From assembly GCA_010093815.1 (NCBI GenBank), contig ML996576.1: a stretch of DNA of 64,000 nt. The stretch is one strand, 5' to 3'. The position numbers and the translations under genes are program-made. The notes below the pieces were generated by a model that was given only the letters and a program-made list of their open reading frames with translations, was not told where the DNA came from and ran no database searches. Positions 20,165 to 44,594 of the stretch are shown piece by piece (position 1 is the stretch's first letter; the number at the start of each line of letters is the position of its first letter). This stretch comes from Pseudovirgaria hyperparasitica (taxonomy: Eukaryota).

Positions 20165-21988
20165 CTAAAAATCTAGCTCTACAAGTACTGATCGTGGCAT
20201 GGTACAACATGCCTTGATTCTGCTCCCTTCCTTATATCCGTCGCCTATACTACTCACTACTTGTCCTTGGAGCATTTGGATCTCACAGGCTCCGCAGGTG
20301 CCCTCCCTACATCCATAGTCCGGTTCAAGATTTTCCTTTTCCAATAGCTGGAGTAGCGATATTTTAGAGCTTCTCTTCCACGTGATTGTGCGCCTCGCGC
20401 GTTTCAGCACAATCTGAGATTGTTCTGGCAGCTCTTCCGTAGTGTCGAGCTGGGCTTTCGCTGAGGTATCTCTGGCAAATGATTCGGAATGGATAGATGA
20501 TTCATTCATTTTGCAGGCAAGCAAATGGTCGCGAGTCGCTGACGCGAAGGCATTTGAGCCACAAATATAAGCCACAGAGATACATCCTGCCAGCTCGATT
20601 GGGGTGATATTCAGAGGGTTGATCATGTACGAATTCCTCAACAAGTCTTCGTAGAAGACTCGACCAGGTCGACCACCGAAATCATAGTCGCGACCAAGAA
20701 CGTCTATCTCTGGACGAGGCCTGGTGAAAAAGCGAATGACTCGCAGGTTCGGAAACGAAGGGAGCTCACGCTGGAAAAGATGACCGTCGGTAGAGCCGTC
20801 ACGAGCAACATGGACGAACACTGCAGGCGTCCTAAGAAGCGTCTTATGGAGGGAATGCGCTTTGAGCATAGCTAGAAGAGGAGTAATTCCAATGCCATTG
20901 GATATGTACAGTTGCCGAGGAGGGAATTGGGGTTTCCAATCTAGCATGAATTTACCGCGTGGTGAAAGCGCACTGAGGATGACGCCTGGCACAGCATGCT
21001 CATGCATCCATAGAGAAGCCATGGCTTGTCGTTTGATGCTGAGTCGGTAGTGCGTCGGTGGCATGGACGGGTCAGTCCAGTCCGATAGTGACCATGACCG
21101 GATATCGCCAGTGGGTAATTTGACGGTAAGGAACTGACCCGGAAAGAAGTTTGCCAAGTCCAAGTTATCTGTGGCTTCAATGTAGAACGACTTAACATCT
21201 GACGATTCTTCAGTGACTGATGATATCCGTAAGTCTCGCCATCCCTGCCACGAGCCCTTTCCTTTCATCTCTTCGTCTTCGATCATGCTCAGTTTCCTCT
21301 CCAGGATTTGCCTATTCATGTTCTGTAGTACCGGGGCACTAAGGATGCGTTTTGCACGATGTTTCGTTGTTTGGTCCGCATTCGAGCTGAAGATCGTCTG
21401 TGCTATCATCGCAACCGGAATCAGCTGTCGCAACTGGCGCTGAGGTCGAACGATACGTCCCGAACTGCCAGGACCAATAGTCCCTCCTCGTATGACTTTC
21501 AGATAGACCCCACAGAGGCCTGACGCAGCGAGCTCTGCAAGCCACGCGCCTTTCTGTCCCAACCTCCAAGCTAAGCGGCTACATGGATTCCGCCCACCAC
21601 AAACCTCGAGCTGTACTCCTTGCCCGGCGAGCGTGTCCTCGAAGTCCCAGATGTCCCCAAGCATGACATCATGCTCGTTAACTCCAGGGGGAGCTTTTAT
21701 GGTTAAATTCTCCCCCCAATGCGCCCAATCCCACGCATCGCGAGCTATGCCGAGCCGAGATGTCCAGTAGTCGTAATGATCGGAAAATAAAGCGTATACT
21801 TGTGCATCATGAACAGCAGATCTATGACCTACAATACCATTGTTGGGCTCAAGACTCAAGGGCTCAGTGGAGGGTGAGCGAACAATTGCGGTCAAGGTCT
21901 TGTGGCCATGTATGTCATGATATGCCGGTTGCGACCGCGATACAGCCACAACTTGCAGCTGAGAAGCTTTGTGCTGGTCATTTGGCAT
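20165..21988 (-). CDS. MOSC-domain protein fused to FAD/NAD(P)-binding reductase and C-terminal 2Fe-2S ferredoxin
   Basis: MOSC motifs WGENLTI and GGRNPCSRL (conserved Cys), GVYLKVIRGG; FPGQFLTV, RSWSLS, SNGIGITP, YICGS; ferredoxin GCREGTCGAC...CC; intronless; start placed at MPNDQ. Confidence 0.85.
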   Translation of the reverse strand: MPNDQHKASQLQVVAVSRSQPAYHDIHGHKTLTAIVRSPSTEPLSLEPNNGIVGHRSAVHDAQVYALFSDHYDYWTSRLGIARDAWDWAHWGENLTIKAPPGVNEHDVMLGDIWDFEDTLAGQGVQLEVCGGRNPCSRLAWRLGQKGAWLAELAASGLCGVYLKVIRGGTIGPGSSGRIVRPQRQLRQLIPVAMIAQTIFSSNADQTTKHRAKRILSAPVLQNMNRQILERKLSMIEDEEMKGKGSWQGWRDLRISSVTEESSDVKSFYIEATDNLDLANFFPGQFLTVKLPTGDIRSWSLSDWTDPSMPPTHYRLSIKRQAMASLWMHEHAVPGVILSALSPRGKFMLDWKPQFPPRQLYISNGIGITPLLAMLKAHSLHKTLLRTPAVFVHVARDGSTDGHLFQRELPSFPNLRVIRFFTRPRPEIDVLGRDYDFGGRPGRVFYEDLLRNSYMINPLNITPIELAGCISVAYICGSNAFASATRDHLLACKMNESSIHSESFARDTSAKAQLDTTEELPEQSQIVLKRARRTITWKRSSKISLLQLLEKENLEPDYGCREGTCGACEIQMLQGQVVSSIGDGYKEGSRIKACCTMPRSVLVELDF

Positions 21989-22368: not shown

Positions 22369-22394
22369 TTATCGGCGAGGTTTATCGGCGAGGT
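22369..22394. promoter_or_regulatory. Tandem 13-bp repeat TTATCGGCGAGGT x2 in the divergent promoter; candidate Zn2Cys6 site
   Basis: Exact direct repeat; the same CGGCGAGGT core recurs at 25047, 38159 and 38225. Confidence 0.5.
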
Positions 22395-22834
22395 GAGTTA
22401 TTGATGAGGATGAAGCTGAGGTGAGGATGTTTCGCCTGACTAAACCAGAACTAGTCTAGATAGCTCGGATAAGTCATACTGCAGGTGGGTCTGTGCACTT
22501 AGTACGAGGGAATGTCCTACCCTGGACGTCTGACCTATTCTGAGAACGTTCCTAGCTTCAATACGCACGTGGATTAGACACAAACAAAAGAAACTCAGAA
22601 GCGAAAGCCATGAGCTTAACCAATAGATTGTCCTGCTCGGACCGGGCTAGGCACAGCCTTGCAAAGCTGCCGTACCGCAATGGGCCTGCTAGGGGAACGA
22701 ATTGGAATATAAAATAGTAAAGAAAAGTGACTTATAAGTCACGGTGTCTCTCACTTCACCGATTTTCTGTTACAGTTGTACAGCATCTCGTCAGGCAATC
22801 ATTCAAGGTTGACCCAATTCCCATCTTTTCGAAT

Positions 22835-24494
22835 ATGCGATTCAATCACTTCGTCATCGCCGTTGCATTGGCATCGGCCCGTTGCGTGCAAGGCCGTCCG
22901 AGTTCGCCGTCGGATTCTGTGTTACAGATCCTCTACTCTATACCTCAAGGCAACAACACTGAACTCAAGGGCCTTGTGCAGGAAGCACGTCCAATCATTG
23001 ATTCTATTGGCAGCCAAAAACCGCCAAACGATCAGGCACAGCGTAACGAGAATGCTTGTACAATTCTCAAAACTGTTCTGAGAGGTCACTACACCGATTC
23101 GACGAATCAAGTATCCTACGATACACTCCTTCAGAAGAACTAGTGAGTCCCACTCATATTAAGATGTGCCGTTTGCAAATACTAAGACTCATTCAAGTGC
23201 ATCCCAATGCCACCTTCCACCAGCTTGCTTTATTACACCAAACAGCAATGCTGCAGTCGCAATCACCCTCAAGATCATTGATCTTACTCAAGCGAAGTTC
23301 TCCGTCCGCTCAGGGGGACACAATGTAAATCCGGGCTGGGCAGGCGTCTCACACGGCGTGATAATCGACACGCAAGAGTTGAATACCATTCAGCTTCGTC
23401 CGGACAGATCCAGCGTACGAGTGGGCACCGGTAACCGCTTTGGTACTGTTCAGGAATACCTGGATCCATACAATGTGAGTGTGGTCTCTGGTCACACTGT
23501 CCAGCCCGGTGTGGGTGGTGTTCTTCTTGGAGGTGGGTTGCCTCTGGTGAGTACCTACACAGGGATGGGTGCCGACAACATCAAAAGCGCAGAGGTCATC
23601 ACCAGTGACAGTCGAGTTGTTATCGCCAGTGCGACAGAGAATCCTGATCTGTTCCGTGCACTCAAAGGTGGTGTCAACAACTTTGGTATAGTCACGCATT
23701 TCGAGCTTTATACTAGCAAAGTTCATGACATCTGGTTCCGCGCACTGGTATATTCATCTCTTGATCCCTTACCGGTCTTTGACGCTCTACAAAAAACCCA
23801 GGTGGCGATGGAGTCTGACGACAAAGCTGGATTGGTCTTCACGATTCTCCCTTTCGGAGGGTTCATGGTAGATTTTTTCTACGTTGAGCCTACCTATCAG
23901 CCCGAGGTATTCGCTGCGTTTGATGCTCTCACGCCAGTCTCTGCTATTCATGATGCTGTCAATGGCACTGTGTATTCAATCATGCAGAACCTGACCAACC
24001 ACCTCCCACCAGCAAATCGCTATAGCACTTCGTGCACAATCCGCGTTGATACAGATCTCTACACATCCGTGTACAACCGTTATCATGAGATGACACAGAA
24101 GTACTCAACGAATACTACGGCCTTTCAAATGGTAATGCATCCTTATGGATCGGCGACGACTCGCATCTCGAAGGAACGGGGTGGTAATGTAATGGGCGAT
24201 ATTAATGGGGCGCAAACAATTCTGACGTATGGTGCTCAATGGACTGACGACAGGGATAATGAGAAGATCTACGATATTGTAGATGAGATAACCCAAGCTA
24301 CTATCGATGAGGCGGAGCAGCGCGGGTTGGACGAAAAGTTCATCTTTGCAAATGGAGGATCGTTCACACAGAATGTCCTGGCTAGCTACGGAGAAGAGAA
24401 CCTGAAGCACATCCGCGCTGCAAGTAAGAAGTTTGACAGGAAGCAGATGTTTCAGAGCTTGCAGAATGGTGGGTTCCTGGTCAGCCGTGCATGA
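22835..24494 (+). CDS. Secreted FAD-linked oxidoreductase (BBE/VAO family)
   Basis: Signal-peptide-like MRFNHFVIAVALAS; FSVRSGGH (flavinylation His); VGGVLLGGG; LFRALKGGVNNFGIVT; intron 23143-23197. Confidence 0.9.
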
Positions 24495-25046
24495 TTGTAG
24501 TTGTACATACATAGACATCTTCCCTTATATGTTAGACCCCCTTTATTAGTCCAAATCAAACCAACTCGTCGCTCCATCTAAAAGCTTCACCAAAACATGT
24601 ACACTTGATCATCTCTAGTGCTTTCTTCGGAGTCTTCCTATTCTATCTCATTGCCAATTTTATGCTTTGTGAATTCAGCTTGTTCTATCCGGGGCTGTAG
24701 GCGTAGTCCTCATAGTTCTTCTCCTAAAGTCATGGAAGCAGCATATTCTGTACCCTGTTTTTCCACTTCCAGACGCCATGAATTCATTCAAGGTTCCTGG
24801 ACTACAGTAAGTCACGCACGGACCAATCTAGTGCCATCCATACAGAACGCCGCTGCCATGAAGCCGTAAAAGTCGTGGAACGCCTACACGAGGGCTGAGC
24901 CGTCGTGATCGTATCCCTGCATAACGCCACTGCGCCACACGTACAACATTCGGACCAATCTTTCCATTCATTGTGCGGACAGACTCGTCGGCAGGAACAT
25001 TGCATCGGCGTCTTGGCCAACCTTGAATACCCTACTGCACGTAGTC

Positions 25047-25056
25047 AACCTCGCCG
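25047..25056. promoter_or_regulatory. CGGCGAGGTT motif (reverse strand) ~105 bp upstream of the NAD(P)-binding gene
   Basis: aacctcgccg; same motif as at 22372, 22385, 38159 and 38225. Confidence 0.4.
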
Positions 25057-25160
25057 GCCTCTAAGTCTCTAGCTACACTCACATTGCTTCCTTCCAAAAC
25101 ACTTGCGCAATAGGTTTCCACCAAATCTTTCGCTGAGCTTTGCACTTCAACCCTAACAAC

Positions 25161-25984
25161 ATGGACGAAGAAACCAAGAGACCTCGTGACAGCTCAGTTC
25201 ACATCCTCCTGATTGGTGCGTCTGGCTCTGTGGGCAAGCTCGTGCTGGAACAAGCCTTAAGCAGAGGTATGTACTCCATCCCGCACCCATCTGGACTGTA
25301 CAATTCCAACAGTCCACCTGCATAGGCCACGCTGTCACAGCCCTCGTCCGGAATCCGGACTCTCTCGACTATGTTCGTGGGAAACCCGCCTCCGAGAACC
25401 TCACAGTCCTCCAAGGAACTCCGCTCAACAAAGACGACTTACAAAAGGCAATCTCGCACATCAAAACGCATCCCCGACCGGCCGTAATCGTCACACTGAA
25501 CAACACGGCCAAAAGTGCCCAGGACCCTCCTCCTCCAGGTCAATGCCCACCACATCTTCAATACGACGTCCACAAGCTTCTCCTTCCGCTCATGTCGCAG
25601 CACCAGATCAACAAATTGGTTGTGCTGCAAGCTCTGGGCGTAGGGTCTTCGTGGCCCAATCTCGCTTTGCCTATTCGCCTGGCGGTCAAGTATACGTCTG
25701 TGCACTTCAGCTGGGATGACCACGCCGACGTGGACAGGTTTGTGAAGGCCTATGGTGATGACAACGATGTGCAGGGACACATCAAGTGGGTATTGGTGCG
25801 CAGTTGCATGTTCAGCAATGGACCCGCAAAAGAGGCCCATTGCTATGGTGAGGATGGAGTAGGGTTGCCGTGGTTCCCCAGTATTTCTCGTGCAAGCGTG
25901 GCCAAGTTTCTGTTAGATTCGTGCGAGAACGATGTGTGGGACAATAAGACACCTGTGGTTGCGAACAATGCTCCAAAAAGGTAG
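25161..25984 (+). CDS. NAD(P)-binding Rossmann oxidoreductase (BVR-B/AflX-AvfA-like), 254 aa
   Basis: ILLIGASGSVGKLV...GHAVTALVRNP after intron 25267-25325; WVLVR and ISRASVAKFL. Confidence 0.8.
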
Positions 25985-26268
25985 AGATGGAGGTGGACTC
26001 CTTGGACAACTCCCATAGGTTCATATGAAGCGAAATACTGTTGACGATGTGATATGCGCATGTAATTCAAAACAGTAATATCCACTGAATATAAAAATGA
26101 CTAGCCATTCACAAACATCACGACAATAGAGCCAGGTTGCAGTTATGACATCACGAATGCGAGTGAGGGAGATGTTTGAAGTAGTGATGAAAATACTTTG
26201 AGCTGAGTCAAAACAGAGATGATAAATCTAGCAATAGTCCAACCCAACACCAGCAATGCTTACGCTTT

Positions 26269-29200
26269 TTATTTGGCCAAAGTCTGGAGCGCAGCCAAAG
26301 ACTCACCAAAAGGAATACTGACAAGGTCCGCAGTCTCACTTGCAACATGCATTGCTTCCTCCACTGCCTTTAACATCCCTCCCTGCCTCATTGCATTTAA
26401 TCCAGAACTGATCCTTCTTCCTAAGATGGCAACCTGCTCGAAAGAGAACAAATCAACGTCATACTCCAGCCGTAAAGTGAGGATTGTGTCACTGATGGCC
26501 GAGAACTCAAACATGATGCCGAACTTCGCGCCCTCGGCCCACGATAGCACTGGCTGTAGTCCATCAATCGGTAATCTGGGACTATCACGGTTGTCGTGGA
26601 ATGTAACCATGGCGTCGAAAAGTGCGTGGTTGGGGTGCTCTGAGCCCGACACTGCAGCGCGCAGCGAATCATCGGAGCTCTGGCGCAGGACCTGCAGGAG
26701 TTGGTCCCATGGCAGGGCGTGCGCGAGTGCTGCTTGCGCAGACGTGTGGACTGAACGGACAAATGAATCGACGTCTGACTCCTTGGCCGGCTTATAGACA
26801 CGAATGGGGAAAGGCTGAAGGAAAAGGCCGACTGTGTTGAGATCTTCCGCCGAGCGGCCAAGATAGGGGGCGCCGAGAACCATATCGGTGTGAGAAGACC
26901 CCTCGATCTGCAGCGCGAGATATACTAGAGACAGAGCGGTCTGATGAAAAGTGACGCCTTGTCGGGAGTGCAGATCCTGCAGGATGGACATGGATTCAAT
27001 GGGAAGCATGTATAATTTTGACGAGCCGGAGTATGATGTACGAGGCCGTGAGAGATAGGGTTTATTGTGGTGCTCGATATCAGTCAAGTATGGGGACCAG
27101 AAAGCCGCCGAGTCCGCTTCTATGGGCATCATCCACTCTGTGTCTGAGTAGAAGCGTTGAGGTCGCGGTAACGTGTCCGCACCATTATATAAAGCGGCGA
27201 CTTCTTGAAGAAGGACCTCGAGAGTCTTCAAATCGCAGATTATGTGACTGATGCAGACTAGAAGCTGTTTCTCTGCCACCAGTACGCGAATCGGATAGTC
27301 GCTTGAGAGATCGAACTCGGTGTTGATGGCTTTTCGCAAGAGGAAGGAATCTACGGCCAAAACCTGGGGCGGCTTCTCGAATAGCAAACGTTGGACAACG
27401 TTTCCTCTCTGCCTGAACATTGATCGAAGAATGTCATACCTGGATAGAACAGTATTGAAAGCCGTGATAAGGCAGTCTCGATCAAGTTTTGAATCGTCGA
27501 GGTCACAAAGGTAGGAAACATTGAATGCTGAGGATCCCAGATCAGCCTGGTACTTCATGAACCAGTCACGCTCGATGGGGGACACGCTACTTTGTCCAAG
27601 TCTCGCGGAAACTGACCCATTATGAGATTTGGACAAGCGACGTGCACCTTTACCCATAATGACCCTCGCCATATCGGATAAGACTGGGTTCTGGATGACG
27701 CTCCGGATATTGACACGTTGCCTGAGTACTGAAGACAAGCGACTGGCGAGCTGAAGCTGTAAGATGGAATGTCCACCCAGTGAAAGGAAATTGGAGTCCT
27801 TGTGTATTTGAATGTCTCGATCCATCTTGAGGACGATGCGCCATACGTCTGCGATGATCTTTTCTGTGGGTGTGAGGACAGTCGACCCTAGTGTCGTTCG
27901 CTCCTTTTGTTCCAGCAAATCAAGAGCTTTGTAGTCAAGTTTGCCAGCAGAGGTAAGAGGGAAGTTCTTGAGGCGAATAATATGTCTCGGCATGGCGTAA
28001 GGAGGCAGTTCCTTTGCGAGATTCGACTTAATCGATGCTACGGTGGCAGTGGTAGTCCGAATGGCAGCGATCAGATAATCCTTGCGTTGAAAGATAGCAA
28101 CGCCATCGCACATTGGAAGCACTCTCGCTGCTCTAACCTCGAGATCATGTAAATCAAGTCGGTAACCGCGCAGCTTGATCTGACGATCGTTGCGGCCTAA
28201 TAAATGAATCTCACCAGTCGCAGGTTCGAAATATCCCAGGTCCCCTGTTCGATACATTTTTTCATTACTCTCAGGCAAAACTGCGTCGAGGAGAAACCGA
28301 GCTGCATTTTGCTCAGGTAGACCAATATATCCCTTCGAGACCTGTACACCAGCCAAGAATACCTCGCCAACAGCACCGGGAGGTAAGACTTGCAAGTTGC
28401 GGTCCAGGATATAGAGCCGCGAAGAGGGATTGGGATGCCCTAAGTTTACGCATTGGTCTGGGAGTAGTCGTTTGATTGTTGCCCCGCATGTAGCCTCTGT
28501 GGGTCCATACATATTATACAAAGATAGCTTCTTGCCCCATGTGTTGCAGACGGATTGCGGCACTTGTTCGCCGACGAGATATACCTATGGGTAACATTTT
28601 AGTCAGGCACAACATGATCTGGACAGGTAGGCTCACATTTTGGAGACTAGGAAAGTCGTGAGGCTCCAGTACTTTTGCAATTGACGGAGTCAGGATTGTA
28701 GATTGACTTTCACGCAAGTGCCCAAATGGATCTTCGGCATTGATTGGAGCAAGTCTTAGCGTCGCACCATAGCTCAGGGCAGAGAAGATCTCGTGGATAC
28801 TTCCATCAAAGACAGGGGACATGACCTGGGCCACAGTCACCCCAGGAGCGGCGAAAAGGCGCACTTGTTCATCTTTTTGGAAGGCGACGAGGCCCTTGTG
28901 AGTGCATCGGACAGCTTTGGGCTGACCTGTGGAGCCAGAGGTGAAGCACACATAAGCGAGACGGTCTGGTTGAGGCGAGCGTCGCCTAGCGAATGGCTGT
29001 CCACTGACGACACTGCGGTTGTAGGCTTGGACATTGCATGTGTCTGTCGGTGTTACGGACGAGAGAATCTCATCAATATATAGGAGCTGAGGCGCCGGCG
29101 CGTCTTCGGGACTCGTAGGACTATTTTTAACATATTCGATGTCCCCATTGCCTCGTCCGGGTATCAAAAAGACGCGTGCACCACTGCGCTTCAGGTTCAT

Positions 29201-31233
29201 TCCTCGCAGTTCTGCTGGCGCCGAAGGATCAAGTGGCGTATAAACTCCTATGGACGGCAAGCAAGTCAGCTACAATGATAATCTTCTTCAATAGATGGAG
29301 TCATCATCTTGGACGCACCTTTCGCCTTCAGGATCCCATATATGGCAATCAGCCAGTTGATGGATCGATCTGCATACACGCAAACGCATTCCTCCGGTTC
29401 GATAAAAGCAAGCGTATGTGCCACAGCGCCTGCAGCCTGGTCAAATTCACGATACGTCAATTCTACGCGACCTCGTGCGATCGCTATGCCTTCTGGGTTG
29501 CTTTCAACTGCCTTTTCAAAGAGCGTCACCAAGTCTTCATGTTTCGAATCATCAAACGTCTCTACAGAGAAGCAATTGCTCCACTCCATTACGTTCTTGA
29601 CCGCTCTGGCAGGAAGCAGGCTGTCAAGGCAGCTCAGCAGGGGGTTACTGGTCTTGAGAAGTGCGTGCATGCTTTTCAAATAGACCTCGCCTAAGAGCTT
29701 CATGTCATTCCACTCATAGTAGCTCGAATTGAAGATGAGCCGAACTTGACCATGTCCTTCGACGATGATGGACAGAGGAATGTCCGATTCCATCTCAAAC
29801 TTCCGCGGAGCAGGACTGTCGGTGAAGTCTGATGCCTCATCATCATTGCTAAATTGCATGGCAAGGACAGATGAGAATTGACGATCGACCCCATCTTCGA
29901 TGCTGGACGACGAAAACTGATTCAGATCTTGCATCTTCTGAGAGACGTCATGTACTAATGACTGAGCATTCAAGGCCGCATCAACAGCGACAAACAATGG
30001 CAGAGTATTGATCAAAGGCCCAACCACTTCGAATATTCCGTCGACGGGCAAGTCTCGCCCTGACATAACGATGCCAAAGCAAACTTGGTTGCTGTTCGTA
30101 TACTTGCTCAAGGTCAACGCCCAAGCTGCCGAGTAATAAGCTGCAGGTGTGAAGCCATTTGCCTTGCTAATCGCTAACAGACTTTCGTCAGGAAACTGTA
30201 CTGTCAAGCTTTCCGTTCGGCCGGGCTGTGTTCCTGAAAGCCGCTGCGGTGATAGAACCAGTTGACGGGCTGCTGATGCGAACTGCTCGTGCTGTTTGTC
30301 CCAGAACTCGCGTGCTGCGTCTTTATTAGACATCTGTATATCTTTGATCTGCCTCACTATAGCGCCAAAGTGGGGGCCTGCGCGGATCTCCTCGCCTCTC
30401 AGAACGTCGCGGACTTTGTTTCGAATGAGCTGGATGGAATAGCCGTCGATGAACGCGTGGTGGACCCTCCAGACTGTGATAATCTTGTTAGGCTCTGCTC
30501 CAATCGGTCCATCGATCGTCACTATGTCGAACGATGAAATAGATCCGTCGACTTCCGGTTGTCGGCTCATCTGCTCGTCGAACGCTTCTTCGTCCGGGAC
30601 ATGCAACTCTCGCCATCGAAAAAGGGCATTTGGTGCGACAGCCATTCCCTGCAACAGTTCTGAAAATATGGGTTCAGACTGCACAACACGCTCCCACGCA
30701 AGTTTGATGGCCTCTAAGCTCTGGCCTTTGAACGCGTCCTGGATGGTAAGGACATTAAGAGAAGGGGTTCGTAAGCTTCCGCGTAATAACAAGAGTTGCA
30801 ACTCTGTTAGGCTCTCATTATGATGCCCATTTAGGATATCCTCTGCAGTGATTATGTCATGCGCAGAGCCGTCCAGGGCCTTCGCTGGCGTTATGTTCAC
30901 ATGATCTGAACCAAGCTCTGGCGAAGAGAAGTCGATCGCCGCATAGGGGTCTGGTGTAGGGGGCGCTGTTATCGGTGCTGGAGCTGCCAGTGATACCAGC
31001 TCATCGAGCCGCTTCGCACGAAGTATGGCGCCTGTGGGGAGCAAGAGTCCATTTTTGTGACAATGTGCGGCAACCTTGATGGCTGATAGGGAATCGCCCC
31101 CTAGAGCGATAAAGTTGCTGTCGTCCAATACATGCGATTCCGGTACCTCAAGGATGGTCGATATAGCCTTAGATATCAGGCTTGGCACATGTAGGCCGGC
31201 AAAAGGGACATGTAGTGAGTTCTTGATGTCCAT
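26269..31233 (-). CDS. NRPS with T-C-A-T-C architecture (AtaP/AclP-type ETP-family diketopiperazine synthetase), ~1613 aa
   Basis: T1 FIALGGDSL; C1 HHAFIDGYS; A core motifs FTSGSTGQPK, YNMYGPTE, YRTGD, GRNDRQIKLRGYR and AGKLD; T2 FLSLGGHSI; terminal C SHIICD; introns 29248-29318 and 28585-28636 restore one frame. Confidence 0.92.
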
Positions 31234-31584
31234 AGTCGAGGTTTGAGATTTGAACTAGCGAGACCCAATCTTCAGCATGCAGGTGCGTATCTATAACTTA
31301 CAAGGGAAACCCTTCTTCGCAGGAACTTCAGCGGAGCTGGATAGGTGCAGATACCATCTCCGGCTGAGTGATGCATCCGAGACTAAGGTTCGTTACGTGG
31401 GAGCCACAGACCCCGATCAGTTCCTCGGCGCCTAAAGAGAGCTCAAAATAGTAATACCATACGGAAGACCAAGAATCGACAACTCGCTCAAGGATCTAGT
31501 CCTCGTATCGGCTAATGTGTCAGAAGCTCCGTGTATCGGCCCAATATCATAGCTGACAGGCACCGATAGTACAGCCTCACCGAA

Positions 31585-31595
31585 TCGGCCACCGA
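31585..31595. promoter_or_regulatory. TCGG-N3-CCGA palindrome (GliZ-type consensus) in the NRPS/monooxygenase divergent promoter
   Basis: TCGGCCACCGA, next to a CCTCACCGA variant of the shared motif (31575-31583). Confidence 0.5.
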
Positions 31596-31726
31596 TGGAC
31601 TGTGGTGATGAGGGTCTCACAATTTCACGGTGCATTTTGGACTGACGTGAATGACTTCTATTTGGTACATGAAACCATCTAGACGCAACTTACACTCCAA
31701 ACATTTCCTCTCCATGTTAAGGCAAA

Positions 31727-33023
31727 ATGTCGAGTCCCAAAGTTGCTATTATCGGAGGTACGTATGAGGAATTTTCTATCTAATACGTATGATGCTCTAA
31801 CGCCTAATGTAGCTGGCCCTGCTGGTCTTACTCTCGCCAGTATATTGCATAAAAACTCTATAAATGTCACTTTGTATGATTTAGATGCCGATAGATATTC
31901 CAGAAACAGCGGCGGATCACTTGACATTCACCCTGACTCGGGACAACGAGCATTAAAAGAAGCCGGGCTTTTGGATGAGTTCTTGAAGTACGCACGTCCA
32001 GAGGGAGAAACGCTCCGAATCATCGCTCCAGATGGAACGACATTGATGGACGAAAGCCGAGGTGATGAAGGTCGCCCAGCAGACGAGTTCGCCAACCGTC
32101 CTGAGATTGATAGACGGCAACTACGCAGCATGTTGCTAGATTCTCTGAACGACTCAGTCATTCAATGGAAATCTAAACTGCTACGTGTTGAGGACAATCC
32201 GGGCCAAAAGCTCAAGCTACACTTCGCAGACCGCACCGAGGAGGGCTTCGACTTTGTCATCGGCGCTGATGGCGCGTGGTCAAAAGTTCGCTCTCTTCTT
32301 TCTGACGTGAAGCCCTTCTATTCCGGCGTGGGAGGTCTTGAGTGCCATATCACCGACGCAGATGCAAAGCACCCAATGTTAGCACAGCATGTTGGCAATG
32401 GCATGTGTCTCAATCTTGGCTCTGATAAGGGTATCATGTGCCAACGAAACGGTGATGGTGGCATTCAAGCATACGCATTCGCTCGCCTCCCTGAGACATG
32501 GTATCAAACTTGTGGGATCAGCTTCACGGATCAAACGGCGCGAAAGGCCGTTGCTGATGCTTTGTTCGCCGACTTCAGTGAGAATTTGCAATCTTTGATT
32601 CTGGAGAGTGACGATGACACTGTCGGCCGGCCTCTTTATCAATTACCGGTCGATTTCACCTGGTCGAATAACCCTAGAGTCACGCTTGTCGGAGATGCAG
32701 CTCATTTAATGACACCATTTGCGGGAGTAGGCGTGAATGTGGCCATGCAGGATTCTCTGGAGCTGGCCTTGGAGATCATCTCTGCAAACAAATCTGGATA
32801 CTTTGGAAGTGCACTGGAGAACTACGAGCTCAAAATGTGGAAGCGAGCACGACAGAACGCCGAGCAAACGATGATGTACTTGAACTTGTTCTTCCATCAC
32901 CGCGGCGGTATCGCTATGGTGGAGTACTTTGCAGAGAGGCAGAAAGCCATGAGGCTGAAAGAGGCGCATGGAAAGGACATGGCCAGTGTTCAGACTATTG
33001 AGCAAAAGACAATTGTGGACTAG
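31727..33023 (+). CDS. FAD-dependent monooxygenase, TetX-like group A
   Basis: MSSPKVAIIG|AGPAGL (intron 31758-31812); GGSLDIH, RPEIDR, IGADGAWSKVR and VTLVGDAAHLMTPFAGVGVN. Confidence 0.9.
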
Positions 33024-34883
33024 CTACTTGATACGAGTAGTAGGATCGCTGTTACTCAGCCTGCCGATTGATTAAAAGCCGTGCGCATATTTTAGAAAAA
33101 GCAAAGAAAGAGAACTGAACTCAGAGTCTTTGTTTGATGGAATACCTGCTTCCAGCCAAGCTTCATTAATTCTGTGAAATCTTGACTCCGGACACTGTCA
33201 AATCATGGTTAAGTCTCTGCGGGCTTCCTGGTCAGCTTTGTCTGTAGGTATCACAGCCAATGCTTGGCAAGCAATCGTGATCGGTCTTACTTCTGATGTG
33301 ACTGTCTGCTTCATGTTCCTTGAAACAAAGATCAAATCCTATCCGGATAAATACGATAATCACCCTCCTCACCGACTCGTCAGTGTCACCAGATTTGGTG
33401 AGATATGTCGCCAATATCGGACGCAGTTCCTCCGGTGACACAAAAGGCAGACTCAGAGTCGGCTTGCGTGCTGCTCCGTGTCTCCTTTCTAGACTTGGCC
33501 TGAAACGCTTCATGAAATGATAGCATAAGCGCATGAACAGCGGCCTGGGCGGAACTGTATCCTCATCGTTGTCGTTGCCCTTGACTTTTTGTCAGGTATC
33601 TCGGAAAAGGAGGAGTAGGATAGGGCCAACGTCGCTGTAGCCTGACTATGACGGAGCAGGTCCATGAAAATATTACCTAAGTAATAATGCTCCGTGTCAC
33701 CAATCTGAATCCGGCGTGGTCGTGCTTCGTACAGCGTACATGCAGGGCCTTACTAGGACACCCACAAACACGGGCCTTGGCCATGCGTTCGTTGGTCGCC
33801 TCCGTCGTGCTGGAAATATGCATCCATCAGTGCCCAATTATACTATATGCAGGCAGACTGACAACTGTTTTACGGGGTGCAGTCTAGATTCAGACACACC
33901 GCTAAACTTATAGGACGCGCTTTATGCACATGTATGCTTAGATGCCTAGCGTGCAGATCCGCGGTGAGCAGTCGAACAGTGCTGCGCACCAATGAAGTTC
34001 CAAGGTGTCATACTCAACCACGATGCAGGTGTGTCCCACACCGGATGGATAGTTTGAAATTAAATGCTATCCAAGTGTTTACATAGGTTTTGATCATTCT
34101 AGAGCATGAAGATCGCGAGTCCTTTACGGAGGCCTAGAACGCCATTGGAGAGTACGACAAACCGTTACTCAGGTTGAAATAAGCCCTCATAGCAGCGTAG
34201 CATTATAATGCTATTTCAGGAGTGTGGCTCGATCATGGCGTATTTACACGTGTTTATGCTCTGCACGCTACGAGTTTATGTAAATCAATACGTATTAAAT
34301 CAGAAATAGAATAAAGTCATTGGTTACATCTATTATGAAGAGAGAGAGGGACTCTAAAGTGGAAATAAAGGTTTTAGCTAACTAGCTGCTAGTTCTGATT
34401 AGGCGAGTACGACCCACCACGTCACCAATGACTGTTTATAATACCAACCACACTCATTACGCCCCAAACTCTGTGCTCGATTCCTTGTGGCTCTGACAGT
34501 AGGAACTTCCAAGAACCATACGATTCCTCCTCGTAACTTATGTCGTTCGACTTCTTCCGGAGGATTGCGCTTACAGTCATCAACGTACGCTGACGGGTGC
34601 GTTGCATTCCTACTCCCTCTTGGCGAGTCCAACAACTGAAATAGGACGTTGCGACATAAAGGGTCCGTCAGACATGTTGTCCCTGACAGGTTTGTGGCGT
34701 CGCTACAGTAAACGTTCGAGATTTTCGACTGGGCCATGGTGACGAACTATGCATTCAGCTGCAATAGTAACTAAGATCTGATTGAAAAAGTCGAAAGCTT
34801 TTCATCGTCACGTCTCGCAATGATTTCAAATTCTATACTGTGACCACGTCCATCAGATCCAACCTCGCGCTATCTGTGTCATT

Positions 34884-36059
34884 ATGGACCGCTCAGCGAC
34901 AGCCAACGTAACAGAACTTGGCAGGAAAAAGAGACTTGCCTGCGATAATTGCCATGGTTCAAAGGTAAGATAATAGTAACAGTCTCCATATATGCAGCTG
35001 ATCATATATAAGGTCCGTTGTACCGGGGAACAAGACGGTTGCCAAAGGTGCCGAAAGGGCGGTAAACAATGTCTCTACAGCGAATCAAATATGGGTCGCA
35101 CTATAGGGGACAAGAAAAAGAGGGTTTCCAGATCAAAGATGTCCGGAACAAGCTCTCTGGATACTTCATCTTTCAACTCAACACCGTTATATGGAAGCTT
35201 CGAGCCCGATGCTTTCATGTTCGAAGATCCCTGGAATGTTCCAGGGAGTGCCGGTATACTCGATGACTGGACGTTCTCTGATGACATTCCCAGCTTTGAT
35301 CTCAACGACAGCTTGACTTTCGATGCGAACGCACCACTGGCCTTATATGAGACCTCATCGAGCTCCAACAGCTGTGTAGGAGCAAACGGCGGAAAGACCG
35401 ATACCATGATGTCCGATATTCGCTTTACACCTATGCCGTTGACACCCCAACAAAGCTTAGCCTCTCTCTCCCCTTGTTCTCTTTCTACGCCGGCCTCTAG
35501 TAGAGTTGGAGAGGATCCATGCAGCTTTGATACTCCTACAACAACACCTGAAGTTGGCTCTTGGATTCAGAGGGTAGAGTCTCTGAGCAATAAGTCCACC
35601 ACGAAGGGTCCTCCTCTTGACGAATTACTCCGACTAAGTCAAGCGCTACTTCCAAGCATGAGCAACGTATTAAAATGTCATAATGTCTTCTCAAATCCTA
35701 TATCCACTCTACTACTCGTCATTGTTTGTCTTTCACAGACGCTGACACTCTTCGAGCGATCGTCACACGCATCCGAGCAGGATACTCAGACCAAGGAAAG
35801 GCCTAGCGTCTTACTGCATCTCGGAGGTTTCCAAGTCGACTCAGAAGCACAGAAGATGCTACAGACCCATGTTATGAATAAAGAGCTGTCGAAGATGATG
35901 GAAATTGTTGGTGAAGTGAACAAAGTGGTGCGGGACTTAGGGCTAGCGGAGGATGAAGCTTTGTCAAACACACATGAGTTGTTGCTGGATGACATCAGGG
36001 TACGGATAGAGACTTTGGTGTGTAGCCTGAAGGAAGCCGGAGGTTATTCGAATTTATGA
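34884..36059 (+). CDS. Zn(II)2Cys6 transcription factor (AflR/GliZ-like pathway regulator)
   Basis: ACDNCHGSK|VRCTGEQDGCQRCRKGGKQC across intron 34965-35012; C-terminal LHLGGFQVD. Confidence 0.9.
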
Positions 36060-36586
36060 ATACGATTGGAATCATATATATCTGCAGTACTGTGCTCTTT
36101 AACTTGATTGTAATATAGACTCTAGGATGGGACCCAACAAAAGTATTGTTTACTTCAATACGAAAGCATTGGAATGACACCTGTCCACGATGCTTGAGGC
36201 TGGGCATACACATTATATAATGTTCTATGTAAAAGTACGAGAATAGACTTATGATCAATTACGACAACACCAAAGCGTCCGTTAAAGCAATCGTTAAGCA
36301 CAGTTCAACAAAGTCTATTCTTGATTCTAGATTATGTAGTAGCATAACAAGCGAGCGTCTAATTTCGAATGATCCAATGCTATATTACCTCCAACTGTGT
36401 CGCTCACTCTACTCTTATCACCTTTCACCCTTCTATTTATAACTCTCAATTCAGCTTACAACAATGATGGACATAAAACAAAATCGCGCCAAATACACAC
36501 ACCACATAGAAAAGAATCGCTCTATCTACACCACACGTACCACCGGGTCCAAGCAAGATACGAAAATGGACCTGCAACCCGATCGC

Positions 36587-37388
36587 TTAATAACCATCAA
36601 CAATTTGTCTCTCTGTACGCACCCTCAATCGTGATCTAGCAGGCGACACGGGCTCACGGGCTGCAGTGCCATTACCCTTGTTTTGATAACAGCAATTGAC
36701 ATCTTCCCACTCAGGAGGCACGACCTTAGTAACTCTCTCGCTCGTCTTTCGCTCATCCAACTGGCGAGCTTCACTCAGGGTCTTGACCACCCCTTTTAGT
36801 GCCTCCCGTTGGAAAACACTGAAGCCAGACGGCTGATTGATGCAGCCCCAAGCGCGCCAGTCTACGGCCGTCTCGTGCTCGCTGACCTTTGTGACAGTCA
36901 TGCTGTCCCAGAACCCGTCGAAGATCATTTGGTGGTCGCTTGTATTCCAGTAGAACATTGGCCGGTCAGCTTGTTGCAAGGCGAGATTGAAGGAGCCATC
37001 AGGTTGTGTGGCCATGTTGTAGATTTGCTCGACGAATTCGACACCGTTGGCGGGCATGACGCGAACAGCGCCGGGAGTCAAATCTGTGCCGGAGACACTG
37101 ATGGGGTGCGGGACGCCGATCCAGGCTGTTTGGTGGACTGTGATGGGTTAGATATGGGTTGATACTGCTGAGTTTTAACTTACAGTTCTTCATGATTGCA
37201 CTGACATCCTCGATTTTAGCGCCTAGTGTGATTGTTGAGCGCGATCGTTGGTAGGGCATATCATGGGAACATGTGCATGCGCCTTCGATAGTCTCTTGAG
37301 AGCATGAAGGAGGAGGTGTGTAGCAGACTGGGCTGCTGGACACGAAGTGTGATAGGATGGACAAAGTGATGATGTTTATGAGCTTCAT
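36587..37388 (-). CDS. Secreted protein, possible SRPBCC/START (polyketide cyclase-like) fold, ~251 aa
   Basis: Signal-peptide-like MKLINIITLSILSHFVSS; intron 37138-37183; helix-grip-like pattern ITLGAKIEDVSAIMKNF...W...PGAVRVM...FVEQI...TAVDW. The fold call is inference. Confidence 0.6.
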
Positions 37389-38158
37389 TTTGCTAGAACT
37401 TGAAATCGACTGATACTGTACGTAAAGATACAATGAACGACCTTTCAAGGAAATTGCAAACTTGAGATTCTTTGATTTTTCACTTGCTCGAGAACCGACT
37501 CTTTGTATTTCAATGAACCAGATAACGTCGTTGCCTTCACCCCACCGGCCTGCGCCCTCTCGTGTTGTTCGATGCGCCACTTCGCATCGCCCATTGGAAG
37601 GAGTCTCAGTCATGAAACGGATAGCCTATTTCGAGACTCGTTGAGGCTATGGCTCAGCTCCTCAATGTGCTCATGAGGAGCTCATTTCGTCGAACACGGG
37701 TGATTACGTTGCTATCATGCGATCCTTCGTGTGGGATGACTAGTCTCTCGCCACGTTAAGCCTCGCGGAATGCGTAACGAGTGTGAAAAAACAAAGTTGT
37801 TTGATGGTGGTCAAGAGGTCTTAGATCTCGGTCTAGACTCTAGAGCAAGCCCAACACTGAGCTTGGTCCAGCGCCTTGTCTGTTCAATCGCGCACGGTTC
37901 TGGAGGCTCAAGCCAAAAGCATGGATTGTATAAATGGCAACCACGTGGCAAGCCACACATCCGGCTCGATGGGTCCTAGTGATAAGCCTCGCGAAAAGGA
38001 TTCTCTTTGGATGTAGACATTGTCATTCTGCATTCGATGCCCTGAGTGAGATCCCAAATCGAGAAGCCTTGTTACGAGAGCTGAGAAATCCCGAAGGAGT
38101 GCTGACAAGAGTAAATGTTCCATACTACGCGGACGGTGTGCGAAGCCATAATCTCAAG

Positions 38159-38235
38159 TCGGCGAGGTTTTCTCACAAGGATTAAAACGTGGTCAGCAGG
38201 GTTGTTTGGCGATCGGCGGTTGACAACCTCGCCGA
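38159..38235. promoter_or_regulatory. Inverted pair of TCGGCGAGGTT motifs upstream of the GliC-like P450
   Basis: tcggcgaggtt at 38159-38169 and aacctcgccga at 38225-38235. Confidence 0.5.
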
Positions 38236-38461
38236 CTGCCAAGACTCGCTAGCGGAATGTTGCATGTCTTGCCGAGAACAAAGTGTCGGAGGGTTGAGAT
38301 ACATCACCGTTCAAGGTTTTATGATTGTGTTCTTGGAAGGGCTGTTAACAAGCTTGAGATGAACGCGACCTTCTTTACTTGAGGTTCTCAGCATACTTCT
38401 CGCTACGAACTTCGAAACCCCCTTTTCTCTACCCCTTTTGTCTACCCAGTTCCATAGCACC

Positions 38462-40079
38462 ATGATCATGGCGGTCTCTAGTAATCCCGTCCTGCTTGAT
38501 AGATTCATCTTGCTTGTGTTACCACTCTTTTGTGTCTTCATTCTGGTTGAATTACGATATTCATATGCTCGCCGCTTTTTTGCTGCTCTTTTCTCTATAC
38601 TCTTCAGTGTAAGAAGATCTTATGAAATAGTGTACAATCGTTAACAAACCAAAGACATACCTACATCAAAAATACCCAATTATCCAGCACGAGACACAGC
38701 AGCCCCTTCCATCACTCCCGTTCACTTTTCCTAATGGTCAAGGCGACACAGAAAAGTTTCTCCACGGACGAACGAACAGCGCCAAATGGCAGAACCGGTA
38801 TGGATCTCTATATCGGATCTGGTCGGGTCAATCGCCGGAGGTGGTTCTTACTGAGGCTCGACATGTTGAAGCTGTCTTCAAGGACTCGCATACTCACCAA
38901 AAAGCTCACGCGAATGATAGTGGACAGCTCATGTACACGCTCCTTGGGTCCTGCCTCGGACTGATCAGCGGTCAAGGTTGGAAAGCAGTGCGCAAAGCGT
39001 CCGAGCCGGCCTTCTTGCATCGATCTACTTTGGCTTACACCGAAGACTTCACAGAATTGACGAGGTCTTGGATTGCAGGGCTTGTGGACAACCCGGAGTT
39101 TCGCGATAATGGTCGCTTACATCCCGTCGAAGACTTGAAGCTCTTGCCATTCTTGGCAGTTGCTAAAGTTTTGTTTGGCGACTTTGGTGACGATCTAAAG
39201 GCTCGGCTACTCGCAATTATTCCTGGACGAGAACAGCTTATGAAATACGTGGTCAAAGGAGGCATGCCCCGCTTCTGGATTTCCCAGTTCCTCCCGCTGC
39301 AAGCCAACCGCGAGTTGAAAGAATTCAAGTCAAAGTGGGCTTCGTGGACTGACGAAGCATACTCCCGAGCAGTCGAAAATTACTCTGGCGACTCGTTTAA
39401 GCCTTCGATCATTGACATGTACTCAGCTGTGGCTGAAGGTACAATCACGAGGGAGGAGGTCCTGCAAACACTAGATGAAATGTTGTTTGCCAATCTAGAT
39501 GTTACCATGGGAGGAATCTCATGGAACGTGGTCTTCTTGGCTGCCCATCCGAGTATACAGGAAGAATTGCGGAATGAATTTGGTGGAAGAGCTGCCGATC
39601 GAAACGCATATCTTCTGGAGACTAATAATCTTCTTAATTCCTGCATCCTGGAGTCATCTCGGCTGCGGCCGCTGGCTGCCTTCTCCGTCCCACAGTCCTG
39701 TCCTAATGTTCGCGTCCTGGACGGCTACGTTGTGCCACCAGGAACGAAATTTATAGTAGACGCATATGCTCTCAACATCCGCGATCCGTTCTGGGGTAAT
39801 GATAGGGAGCAGTATCGACCACAGAGATTTTTGGAAAGACAGAAGCTCGGCAAAGATACGCGCTATCGTTACTGGCGGTTCGGATTTGGACCGAGACAAT
39901 GTCTAGGAAAATATGTTGCCGATCTTCTGATCAAATGTTTGATCATCGAGCTGTTGGAACGCTATGACTTGAGACTGTTCGAAAGTAAGGAAGCAGAATG
40001 GCCATGGAACGATGAAACCTGGATTCATCACCCGGAGATGGTGGTGATGTGTAAACCGAGAGAGAAAGCAATATTATGA
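38462..40079 (+). CDS. Cytochrome P450, GliC/SirC-type diketopiperazine alpha-carbon hydroxylase family
   Basis: After intron 38609-38654: FPNGQGDTEKFLHG...YRIWSG.SPEVVLT; LDEMLFANLDVT; ESSRLRPLAAFSVPQS; heme motif FGFGPRQCLG. Confidence 0.85.
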
Positions 40080-42068: not shown

Positions 42069-43834
42069 CTATTTTCTTAACGTCACACGACATGGATATC
42101 CGTCTGCCGGATGACTTCCTCCATTCATAATTTGGTAGGCCCTTTCTCCTTCAAGTCTTTTGATTCCGTCCGATGGATTAATCTTGTCCCATTCATCATA
42201 AACTTCCTTAATGTCAAATTCCCTTACAGTGAGAGCCAGAGTCACTTTAATATCCAGCATTGCCAGTGTCTGCCCCAGACAGTTTCTAGGTCCATGTTCG
42301 AACGGTCGCCAAGCGCCTTTGACCGGGTGCAAAGGGTCGCTCGAATTGACCAACCAGCGTTCCGGCAGAAACTCGTTAGGCCTTGGCCAGTATTTGGGAT
42401 TACGTTGCAGAGCTCCGTGTACGATCCAGATGTTCATTGTATCTGTTGGGTAGAGTTGTCCGGAGTCGTTGTCTCGAAGGGATACATCAGGTCGACCTCC
42501 ACGCATGCCAGATGCAGCAGGAAACAATCGCATGGCTTCCTTTATGACAGCCTCCGTATATGGCAGCTTATTCAACAGATCTGGCTGGTCACAAAGAAGC
42601 TTGGGGGTGTCCGTCAGGTTCTCTCCAAGGACAGCGTCGTGCTCATCGCGAAGCTTTTGCATTGCGCCGGGATTATGCTGGAGAAGGTAGTAGCAATAAC
42701 AAATAGACGAAGACGTGGAGTCGTGACCGGCAAAAAGAAACAGTCGGATCTGTGTAGCGGCCCATGACTTAAAGCTATTGTCTAATCGATCGGCGGTCTC
42801 TCCTGATTTGGACGGCTTACCCTCGCGCATGTAATCGGCAATTGTCAGGTTCATGATGGATCTTGTCGAGGCAGCTTTGTCGTCGCTGGCCCATTCTTTG
42901 AAACGCTGGTCAAGCTCCTTGGAAATGTAATTGTTCATCCGATGGCCGTTGTACCATTGCATTATGGGTCTGATCGGGTTCCATCGGATGAATGGATTCA
43001 ACTCGTCATTGAGGCATTGCCACGAGATTTGACTTCTCATGGCGGTGGCAAGCTCGTTGTGTTGCGTCTGCGAGTGGAGTCTCGAGTTACTAGAAACTGT
43101 CAATACACGCTTTCTGGCCAGGAGAAGCTGAACCCACAATGTGACTGCGCCAATTATGTCCATAGTGTACCAGAGCGTAGCTTCGTCTAGAGAAAACATG
43201 TCCTGCTTGCGTGCATGCGACCTGAGGACCTCGAGATAGACCAGCGCTTCTTCAACAATGTGATGGGTCTGGTTGCGGAGGTAGCGATCGTTAAAACCTG
43301 GACTGAACAAAGCTCGCGACGATTTCCATGTGGGACCGTTCATGGTGAAAAGATTATCACCACCAGCGAGTGGCTGGAAGAACGGCTTCAGCGAGCCAGG
43401 CTTGATCAAATCATGTTCCTGACAAGCTTGAATCGCATGACTAGGCGAGGAAACGATAAGGAATGGGTCACAAAATGGCCATAAGTCCAAGTAGAAGAGC
43501 GAATCCGTCTTTCCAAATTTGCGAGACAGAATGACGAACGCATCAGTCTGCTGGGAATCCTTCGGCATTGTCTTTAGTATTTCCGGCATTACTAGAAGGT
43601 GGCCAAGGATGGGATTCCATGGTGGCATTGGCTGATCAATTGTGAGTCCAAGGTTCTGGCCACTATACATTGCAGATATAGACTTACCATGCCAGCTTCG
43701 CGAAGTCTGTAGAAAGGCATGCGAGCTTTGTAGCCTTTGTAAATGACGTACGCAGTAAAGCATAGCCATAGTGGGACAGCGTAGAACAACACCACAAGCC
43801 ATGCCGGACCATGGTCCAGAAATGAGAAGACCAT
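42069..43834 (-). CDS. Cytochrome P450 (VerA/StcS/AflN-like)
   Basis: TM anchor, PMPPWNPILGHL, FYLDLWPF, FLFAGHDSTS, EAMRLFP, PERW and heme motif FEHGPRNCLGQ; two introns. Confidence 0.88.
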
Positions 43835-44594
43835 TGCGGATTGAGTCTTGGACGGAATATGTGCTGCACTAATCAAGACGCGCGGTCCAAAGGTGCCTTT
43901 AAGGTTGTCGCGTCTGGCAGCTGAGGTCGTGCAATGTTTCAAGCTCGGTATTGATACAGGTAAGAAACAAGCAATAGACCACTTTTGTATCCACCCTGCT
44001 TACCTTGTGGACAAGCCTTGCCATCATCTGCGCCGCATATGAAAGTTCGCCCGTGCCTCAGTTTAGCCCCACGTCACTCTATCGGCCTTGGTGGAGATTG
44101 TTATTGAGGCTGCGTACCTGCGCGGTCTGCTAAACACACATCCACATCCTAGCGCTTACTCTAGTCTAAGACATTCGAACAAAGAGGGTCGCTTACATTC
44201 CTATGTTCATGACTCTTCCGCGTACAGCCAACGGCTTGTCTGGTGGCCTCTCTGGCTAACGCACACGCTTCGAACTGCTTCCGCAAAATATCGACGTGAA
44301 TGTTGTCGAGAAGGCAACCGATGAAGGTGTATCATCTCGGCTAGAGACACAAAAGAAACTATCAAGTTGCTCAATCAGCACACAATTGCATGCACGGATT
44401 CACTTTCGAGGTACGCTAGTGCCAAACAATATATCCGCTACACATTTATTTCGAACAGAAAACATGATCTATTTACCCACCCTTCCAAGACTGGAACGCT
44501 CCACATTTAATGAAATCTACGGTACATGTTGCGCATTTCCACGTTGGGCTTAAACCGAGAGCCTGTCTCTAAGCTCCGAGGGGAGAGCTCTTGT

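Follow-up and report, generated by a model that had tools for sequence, protein, structure and literature searches.

A gene cluster of Pseudovirgaria hyperparasitica pairs a GliP-like peptide synthetase and a GliC-type P450 with a flavin monooxygenase, lacks linked sulfur-incorporation genes and belongs to a family that may make N-hydroxy-2,6-pyrazinediones

The DNA analysed here, a window of 64 kb from the 1.45-Mb contig ML996576.1 of Pseudovirgaria hyperparasitica, carries a cluster of eight genes (positions 20165-40079) that includes a nonribosomal peptide synthetase (NRPS), a GliC-family cytochrome P450 and a flavin monooxygenase (FMO). The initial annotation of this DNA had placed the cluster at 26269-40079. 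This is too narrow, as it omits three genes (20165-25984) that are found again in related loci, and it did not bring in the genes that are most telling for the chemistry, namely the FMO as a core member, a MOSC reductase and a FAD-linked oxidase. For the NRPS, the FMO and the P450, the spliced products match without any difference public proteins listed by NCBI under this species. The cluster consists of the following features.

20165..21988, minus strand: fusion of a MOSC (YiiM-type) domain with FNR and 2Fe2S domains; 607 aa, no intron seen; Pfam MOSC and Fer2
22835..24494, plus strand: FAD-linked oxidase (FAD_binding_4, berberine-bridge-like); 534 aa, hydrophobic N-terminus; from Pfam; intron 23143-23197 spliced
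25161..25984, plus strand: NAD(P)H-binding protein (NAD_binding_10, atypical short-chain dehydrogenase/reductase, SDR); 254 aa; from Pfam; intron spliced
31233->26269, minus strand: NRPS with thiolation (T), condensation (C) and adenylation (A) domains in the order T-C-A-T-C; 1613 aa, three exons, both introns spliced; spliced model identical to public protein P0121
31585..31595, no strand: TCGG-N3-CCGA palindrome (SirZ/GliZ-type site) in the promoter region between the divergent NRPS and FMO genes
31727..33023, plus strand: TetX/AbsH3-type FMO; 413 aa; model identical to P0241; intron spliced
34884..36059, plus strand: Zn2Cys6 transcription factor, GliZ-like short type; 375 aa; weak Pfam Zn_clus match; intron spliced
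36587..37388, minus strand: secreted-type protein with a probable SRPBCC/Bet v 1 fold; 251 aa; intron spliced
38468..40079, plus strand: GliC-family P450; 521 aa, two exons; model identical to P0001; intron spliced

The NRPS has a single A domain in the layout of AtaP and AclP, and its core motifs are intact. It groups among proteins named 'GliP-like' or BcNRPS1, with the diketopiperazine-forming synthetases of the GliP/AtaP group, and is 36% identical to the aranotin-type protein P0228. The A-domain code, taken at the positions of the GrsA numbering, is DGHIYVMCG. This Phe-type code is shared by 73 of 99 relatives and is also present in P0228 and in BcNRPS1-type proteins, which suggests that the window NRPS would release cyclo(Phe-Phe). 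The P450 bears the NCBI name 'cytochrome p450 monooxygenase GliC', its top matches are all GliC-like, and it is 47% identical to an AtaTC-type thioredoxin-reductase/P450 fusion of A. floccosus (P0105). It falls in a clade of its own (support 1.0 / 100) in a tree of the listed matches, which do not include A. fumigatus GliC, SirC and AclC. A sequence search of the PDB gave no close relative (best E 3e-21). Two fused proteins among the relatives, an NRPS-P450 of Monosporascus (P0238) and a methyltransferase-P450 of Lachnellula (P0080), may be annotation joins.

These two proteins resemble the first two steps of an aranotin-type epipolythiodioxopiperazine (ETP) pathway, but by its linked gene content the cluster is not an ETP cluster. 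The acetylaranotin (ata) and aspirochlorine (acl) clusters have the same kind of single-A-domain Phe NRPS and GliC-type P450, whereas they also carry a glutathione S-transferase (GST), a dipeptidase, a C-S lyase and a disulfide oxidase, none of which is present in the window. The Pfam scan covered 30 long frames and all 244 gap frames of the whole window (stop-to-stop frames of at least 50 aa with less than half of their length inside assigned genes), and returned no GST, gamma-glutamyl cyclotransferase, dipeptidase, aminotransferase or thioredoxin reductase, with exons below 50 aa and frames nested within assigned genes lying outside the scan. The gap-frame scan is able to detect short exons, because it recovered small exons of other genes (NDUF_B12, FAD_binding_4). 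No linked set of GliG (the GST), GliK, GliJ, GliI and GliT is therefore found in the window, and the observation of the initial annotation that a GliC-type P450 and an ETP-type NRPS stand here without sulfur-incorporation genes was correct. The same applies to its statement that no GliM/GliN methyltransferase lies to the right of alpha-actinin. The sole methyltransferase found in the window is a Methyltransf_3 O-methyltransferase (frame 1426-2367) that lies beyond the housekeeping genes, and neither the long nor the gap frames within the cluster gave a Pfam methyltransferase. To the left of 19.7 kb, Pfam identifies the housekeeping genes for this O-methyltransferase, a copper amine oxidase, CAF1, a PAK kinase and alpha-actinin.

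Sulfur could still enter if orthologues of GliG, GliK, GliJ, GliI and GliT are encoded elsewhere in the genome, or if housekeeping GSTs trap the acyl-imine. The product of such a split ETP pathway would bear sulfur. We regard this as unlikely. It would agree with the AtaP/AclP architecture and code of the NRPS, the scan for sulfur genes spans only the 64 kb of the window, and unlinked genes can contribute to fungal pathways (PMC8151901). On the other hand, ETP genes are generally co-inherited (PMC2045112), and a fixed set without sulfur genes (FMO, NAD-binding protein, MOSC protein and FAD oxidase) travels with the NRPS/P450 pair.

The initial annotation had also considered a degenerating ETP cluster. 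The data speak against this, and we think it very improbable that a decaying remnant is at hand. All eight gene frames are open, and the motifs of the A, T and C domains of the NRPS, of the haem site and I-helix of the P450, of the FAD site of the FMO and of the MOSC domain are intact. In the contigs of two public runs, each of the eight predicted introns is absent, with canonical ends, and no other letters are listed for these contigs over the cluster region. We infer that these runs are RNA. They come from one sample of one study, their kind is unrecorded and their depth cannot rank the genes. They are possibly the source's own data and are no independent support. Decay would fit the long terminal branches of the window P450 and NRPS (0.5 changes per site) and the lack of a transporter within 20165-40079. 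It does not fit the recurrence of the same set across Pleosporales and Xylariales. Because NRPS, P450 and FMO co-occur on at least 16 other contigs, the cluster represents neither decay nor an oddity.

This count is based on 120 P450 matches, 97 of 120 NRPS matches (21 long multimodular and 2 contig-less proteins were dropped) and 120 FMO matches. Among the matches listed, at least 40 other contigs share the P450 and the NRPS and at least 16 share all three. Co-location was inferred from equal recorded lengths of the contigs, and locus tags confirm the closeness in several genomes, such as Kalmusia (N0V90_012108/012109/012114). In addition, 13 metagenome loci were compared, two of which (L001 and L002) are in the P450 clade of the window. 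L001 contains the regulator, the P450, the MOSC protein and the FAD oxidase, and L002 contains the P450, the NRPS, the FMO, the NAD-binding protein and the MOSC protein, flanked on the other side by 10 kb of AT-rich sequence that lacks long frames. No sulfur genes were seen in the DNA of these two loci, both of which end within the cluster. A third locus (L008) carries the secreted-type and NAD-binding genes, and the remaining loci are short or have other neighbours (a second P450, a major facilitator superfamily transporter, a methyltransferase). The cluster edges in L002 (1-10000) and L007 (1-8000) abut AT-rich DNA (GC 0.21-0.41) without long frames, as is seen after repeat-induced mutation.

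Two published systems are closest to this cluster. The first is the EETBC of Monilinia, Botrytis and Sclerotinia, a co-expressed cluster with an unknown gene, a P450, a regulator, an SDR, a FAD oxidoreductase and a T-C-A-T-C NRPS (PMC8988988). Its product is unknown and was termed ETP-like, and the words glutathione and sulfur are absent from the accessible part of that paper. The product of BcNRPS1 could not be isolated (PMC8467525), and the Sclerotinia cluster was labelled ETP (PMC6941272). The window shares with these clusters the Phe-predicted T-C-A-T-C NRPS, the P450, the FAD-dependent oxidoreductase, the SDR and the Zn2Cys6 factor, and sulfur genes are not listed in the accessible parts of the three papers. 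The window differs in that it adds the MOSC fusion, the FAD oxidase and the SRPBCC-like protein, and its regulator is 375 aa long compared to about 800 aa in EETBC (PMC8988988). The second system is the A. niger NRRL3_00036 cluster, which has 58 orthologues in 644 genomes and gives two yellow NRPS-dependent compounds with masses of 409.1384 and 425.1331 (PMC8151901). The architecture and length of NRRL3_00036 are given in PMC12368960, and based on species and equal length we take P0167 to be this protein. This cluster also combines a T-C-A-T-C NRPS and a P450 with FAD-binding and NAD(P)-binding proteins, and sulfur genes are not among the genes listed in the accessible text of PMC8151901 and PMC12368960. 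It differs from the window by its transporter, its unsolved structures and its position in the EETBC clade, and a MOSC protein or FAD oxidase is not named in those texts.

In the window, the T-C-A-T-C NRPS, the P450, the FAD monooxygenase, the NAD(P)-binding protein and the Zn2Cys6 factor all lie within 25161-40079. The cluster thus has the core genes of the published EETBC/NRRL3_00036 family, of which it is a distinct lineage with a predicted MOSC reductase and a FAD oxidase. In both the NRPS and the P450 tree the window clade (support 100) comprises Xylariales, Pleosporales and Diaporthales and stands apart from the clade of Sclerotiniaceae, A. niger and Delitschia, so that neither window protein is inside the EETBC clade. 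A single origin of the FMO-bearing clusters is not rejected (p-AU 0.44). One branch of the window clade, with Xylaria castorea, Cryphonectria, Coniella and Botryotinia calthae contig 894, has the NRPS and the P450 without an FMO among the top 120 matches, a pattern that a split ETP pathway would accommodate. The pair on B. calthae contig 894 (P0142/P0020) is nested among Xylaria and Cryphonectria, apart from the BcNRPS1 orthologues, and is a candidate for patchy inheritance or transfer.

The lack of sulfur genes is in itself not surprising, since clusters with P and C genes and without sulfur genes were in print in 2007 (PMC2045112) and the family with NRPS, P450, FAD enzyme and NAD-binding protein in 2021-2022 (PMC8151901, PMC8988988). 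The former are reduced P+C+M clusters without G, I, J and T, such as cluster #2 of A. fumigatus, of N. fischeri and of A. terreus (PMC2045112). Like the window, cluster #2 has a GliP-family NRPS, a GliC-family P450 and a FAD enzyme and lacks G, I, J and T, but its NRPS has two modules and belongs to subclade IIIB, and it contains a methyltransferase, a transporter and two regulators (PMC2045112). What is new here is the lineage that adds a predicted MOSC N-O reductase and a FAD oxidase to the known family, together with a candidate product class, the N-hydroxy-2,6-pyrazinediones.

The FMO is a core member of the cluster family. Its matches of known type are AbsH3 (E 5e-69) and TetX (E 1e-54), and the cluster-linked FMOs form one clade (48 of 120 matches, FastTree support 0.93) that includes the FMOs of Botrytis, Sclerotinia and A. 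niger. The promoter that it shares with the NRPS contains a perfect TCGG-N3-CCGA site, and the same motif is present in the NRPS/FMO gap of L002. This motif is cited as SirZ/GliZ-type in PMC10086836. The window has 2 perfect sites where 0.83 are expected, and 21 of 100 shuffles reach 2, which is not significant alone. The motif cannot define a regulon, because the numbers of sites with one mismatch (22, with 20.8 expected) and of CGG-N3-CCG sites (9, with 9.05 expected) are close to expectation. The second perfect site (57564-57574) lies a few hundred bases upstream of a minus-strand P450 gene (55554-57260) and may be there by chance.

The MOSC fusion matches YiiM (5yhh, E 7e-13) and the reductase domain of a flavohaemoprotein. 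Its R-x-P-C motif is conserved in the window, L001 and L002, and the C-x4-C-x2-C motif in the window and L001. Homologues that are 47-49% identical stand beside the P450 or the NRPS in these two loci. A MOSC domain with its putative catalytic Cys and a likely route for electron supply are both present, as in an N-hydroxy reductase, and we predict that the MOSC-FNR-2Fe2S fusion is a self-contained N-O reductase. YiiM-type MOSC proteins reduce N-hydroxy compounds (PMC5818509). The YiiM/YcbX reductases have the same domain and conserved Cys motif; the window protein differs from them by its attached FAD/NAD(P)H and 2Fe-2S domains and by its location in a biosynthetic cluster. In the literature searched, with most subscription journals outside its coverage, we found no paper that combines MOSC, NRPS, diketopiperazine and a fungal P450. 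The FAD oxidase has a homologue (52%) in L001, where it adjoins the MOSC gene. For the NAD(P)H-binding protein there are homologues in L002 and L008 (36%) and no close relative in a PDB sequence search, and an SDR or NAD(P)-binding gene is also listed in the EETBC (PMC8988988) and NRRL3_00036 (PMC8151901) clusters. For the Zn2Cys6 factor, the Zn_clus match (E 4.5e-4) covers the second exon alone, and a full-length homologue lies upstream of the P450 in L001 (30% over 370 aa). The 251-aa secreted-type protein, with a homologue in L008 (26%), probably has an SRPBCC/Bet v 1 fold, judging from Atlas feature matches to polyketide cyclase/SRPBCC clusters (0.90-0.91) and from a model (pLDDT 70) whose best Foldseek matches are SRPBCC/PR-10 proteins, none at E<=0.001.

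Taken together, the cluster very probably encodes an intact, stand-alone, sulfur-free pathway. The suggestion of the initial annotation that the GliC-activated diketopiperazine is dehydrated or rearranged instead of sulfurised agrees with the conserved sulfur-free set, the intact spliced genes and the A. niger masses, and its alternative of degeneration is not supported. The family probably makes sulfur-free, oxidised and conjugated products, because the A. niger mass 409.1384 fits only sulfur-free formulas if it must accommodate a Phe-Phe core (C>=18, N>=2, O>=2, 9 unsaturations, 5 ppm). Looser limits admit sulfur-bearing pairs, yet those for 409.1384 lack either the two oxygens or the unsaturation that a Phe-Phe diketopiperazine needs. 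The mass is 37 mDa off the sodium ion of bis(methylthio) cyclo(Phe-Phe), which is a further argument against a split ETP pathway.

Which sulfur-free product is made can be answered only tentatively. An N-hydroxy-2,6-pyrazinedione of the sclerominol, coelomycin and flutimide kind is the leading candidate, although we would not yet call it probable. Five sources of natural 2,6-diketopiperazines are on record: flutimide is from D. confertaspora, sclerominol from S. minor, and coelomycin and the noonazines from A. noonimiae, M. theobromae and an unnamed coelomycete. Three of these five are linked to the cluster by species, genus or series. In Delitschia confertaspora itself, a 40,687-base contig carries the trio of NRPS, P450 and FMO (P0190/P0119/P0324), and each gene groups with the Sclerotiniaceae/A. 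niger orthologues. The A-domain code of P0190, DGLMYGQCA, is the only strongly altered one among the 99 and would fit a non-Phe product, with Leu as the predicted substrate; flutimide is derived from Leu. In Sclerotinia species the cluster is present with the Phe code, and sclerominol of Sclerotinia minor has been drawn from Phe (PMC11204830). A. sclerotialis, whose 82,882-base contig bears the trio, is in one series with A. noonimiae, a source of coelomycin. Coelomycin is yellow, and its formula, C18H14N2O4, equals cyclo(Phe-Phe) minus four hydrogens plus two oxygens. Two alpha-hydroxylations with water loss, one N-oxygenation and one benzylic oxidation would supply this formula. The predicted YiiM-type N-O reductase in the lineage of the window would also fit an N-hydroxylated product. 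We know of no genes for an N-hydroxy-2,6-pyrazinedione pathway, and the literature searched, again without most subscription journals, contained no paper that links flutimide, sclerominol or coelomycin to genes.

A possible route to this scaffold is as follows. The NRPS would load Phe twice and release cyclo(Phe-Phe), as its architecture and code suggest, and the GliC-type P450 would hydroxylate the alpha-carbons, as its family does in ETP pathways. In the absence of a GST that captures the acyl-imines, the TetX-type FMO may add a further oxygen, most likely at a ring nitrogen, which is the least certain step. On chemical grounds the carbinolamide could then open to an alpha-keto amide, the acyl group could pass to the N-hydroxy-amide and the liberated amine could close on the ketone, after which loss of water would give a yellow, conjugated N-hydroxy-2,6-pyrazinedione. 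Alternatively, a Schiff-base route on the NRPS, as proposed in PMC11204830, would lead to the same ring system. Oxidation of the benzylic carbon may fall to the FAD oxidase, the NAD(P)H-binding protein may modify an imine or provide reduced flavin, and the MOSC fusion may remove the N-hydroxyl, either for self-protection or as the last step. Our working proposal, which we put forward as possible and no more firmly than that, is that these clusters are the missing pathway to flutimide, sclerominol, coelomycin and the noonazines, in which the TetX-type FMO diverts the early part of ETP chemistry into a 2,5-to-2,6 ring rearrangement, that the label 'ETP toxin' is wrong for the clusters of Botrytis, Sclerotinia and Monilinia, and that the molybdenum-dependent N-O reductase of the window lineage serves self-protection or finishing.

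Several points weigh against this proposal. The three linked sources are all outside the window clade, at 37-50% identity. The product of the window may differ from the EETBC-type product, because identity to the EETBC-type proteins is only 40% for its NRPS, 46% for its P450 and 50% for its FMO, and these proteins fall in a clade of their own. To our knowledge, no product is known from the window clade. AbsH3 and TetX, the closest solved relatives of the FMO, hydroxylate carbon. D. confertaspora also has a second NRPS and P450 pair with a Phe-type code (P0225, P0033). The Delitschia and Sclerotinia links were noticed post hoc in the match lists, and the A-domain code and the A. sclerotialis link alone were checked afterwards. 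No ion of coelomycin or noonazine A agrees with the A. niger masses of 409.1384 and 425.1331. These masses are best fitted by C22H20N2O6/O7 as [M+H]+ or C20H22N2O6/O7 as [M+Na]+, with 2-4 extra carbons, and the adduct is not stated in the accessible text of PMC8151901. The A. niger extract did not inhibit S. aureus (PMC8151901), whereas coelomycin does.

It is likewise possible that the stand-alone, sulfur-free pathway keeps the 2,5-skeleton and ends in a dehydro-diketopiperazine or a hydroxypyrazinone, with the FMO making an N-oxide or cyclic hydroxamate or hydroxylating carbon. Such a product would be astechrome-like without methylation and perhaps an iron binder. No rearrangement is required for this, and it is compatible with the same gene set, the MOSC gene and the sulfur-free masses. 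The sulfur-free P+C cluster #2 of A. fumigatus provides a precedent (PMC2045112), though clusters of the has type contain a methyltransferase and belong to another subclade, while the window cluster has no methyltransferase. What a retained 2,5-skeleton leaves unexplained is the presence of the trio in three lineages of rare 2,6-diketopiperazine producers and the unique A-domain code of D. confertaspora. We presume that cluster #2 is the hexadehydroastechrome cluster, whose product binds iron.

Genome miners tag any pair of GliP and GliC as an ETP toxin cluster, and a large family of such clusters probably makes something else. This family is widespread and may make rare metal-binding ring compounds, including the anti-influenza lead flutimide, and the analysis provides a testable product assignment for it while it is still an orphan. 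If the N-hydroxy-2,6-pyrazinedione proposal is true, it would assign genes to flutimide, which has been known since 1995 as a lead for inhibiting the influenza endonuclease, and to its relatives. It would also offer an enzymatic rearrangement of the diketopiperazine ring for study, explain the unsolved products of A. niger and the Sclerotiniaceae, and add a MOSC enzyme to fungal natural-product chemistry.

Other features of the window were also noted. To the right of the cluster, the block 42069-62571 encodes three more P450s and another FAD-linked oxidase (61372-62571), along with a PTH11-type receptor and a PDR-type ABC transporter, and no core enzyme is seen in it. It could extend the cluster, supply export or be part of another cluster. 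The genes at 42069-57260 have no orthologue-level match in the 13 metagenome loci and were excluded from the cluster definition. Between the FMO and the regulator, an extra spliced transcript lies on the minus strand (33024-33600), with an intron at 33217-33290 in both runs. Its longest frame is 102 aa and has no match in the loci, and its first exon gives no Pfam match. It is a candidate for a small protein or an antisense RNA. Long frames without a Pfam match are found at 5715-6389 (minus), 63426-63998 (minus) and 58841-59521 (plus), the last with a hydrophobic N-terminus and several Cys residues, and a protein with a T5orf172/MUG113 domain (Pfam) is encoded at 3323-4918 on the plus strand.

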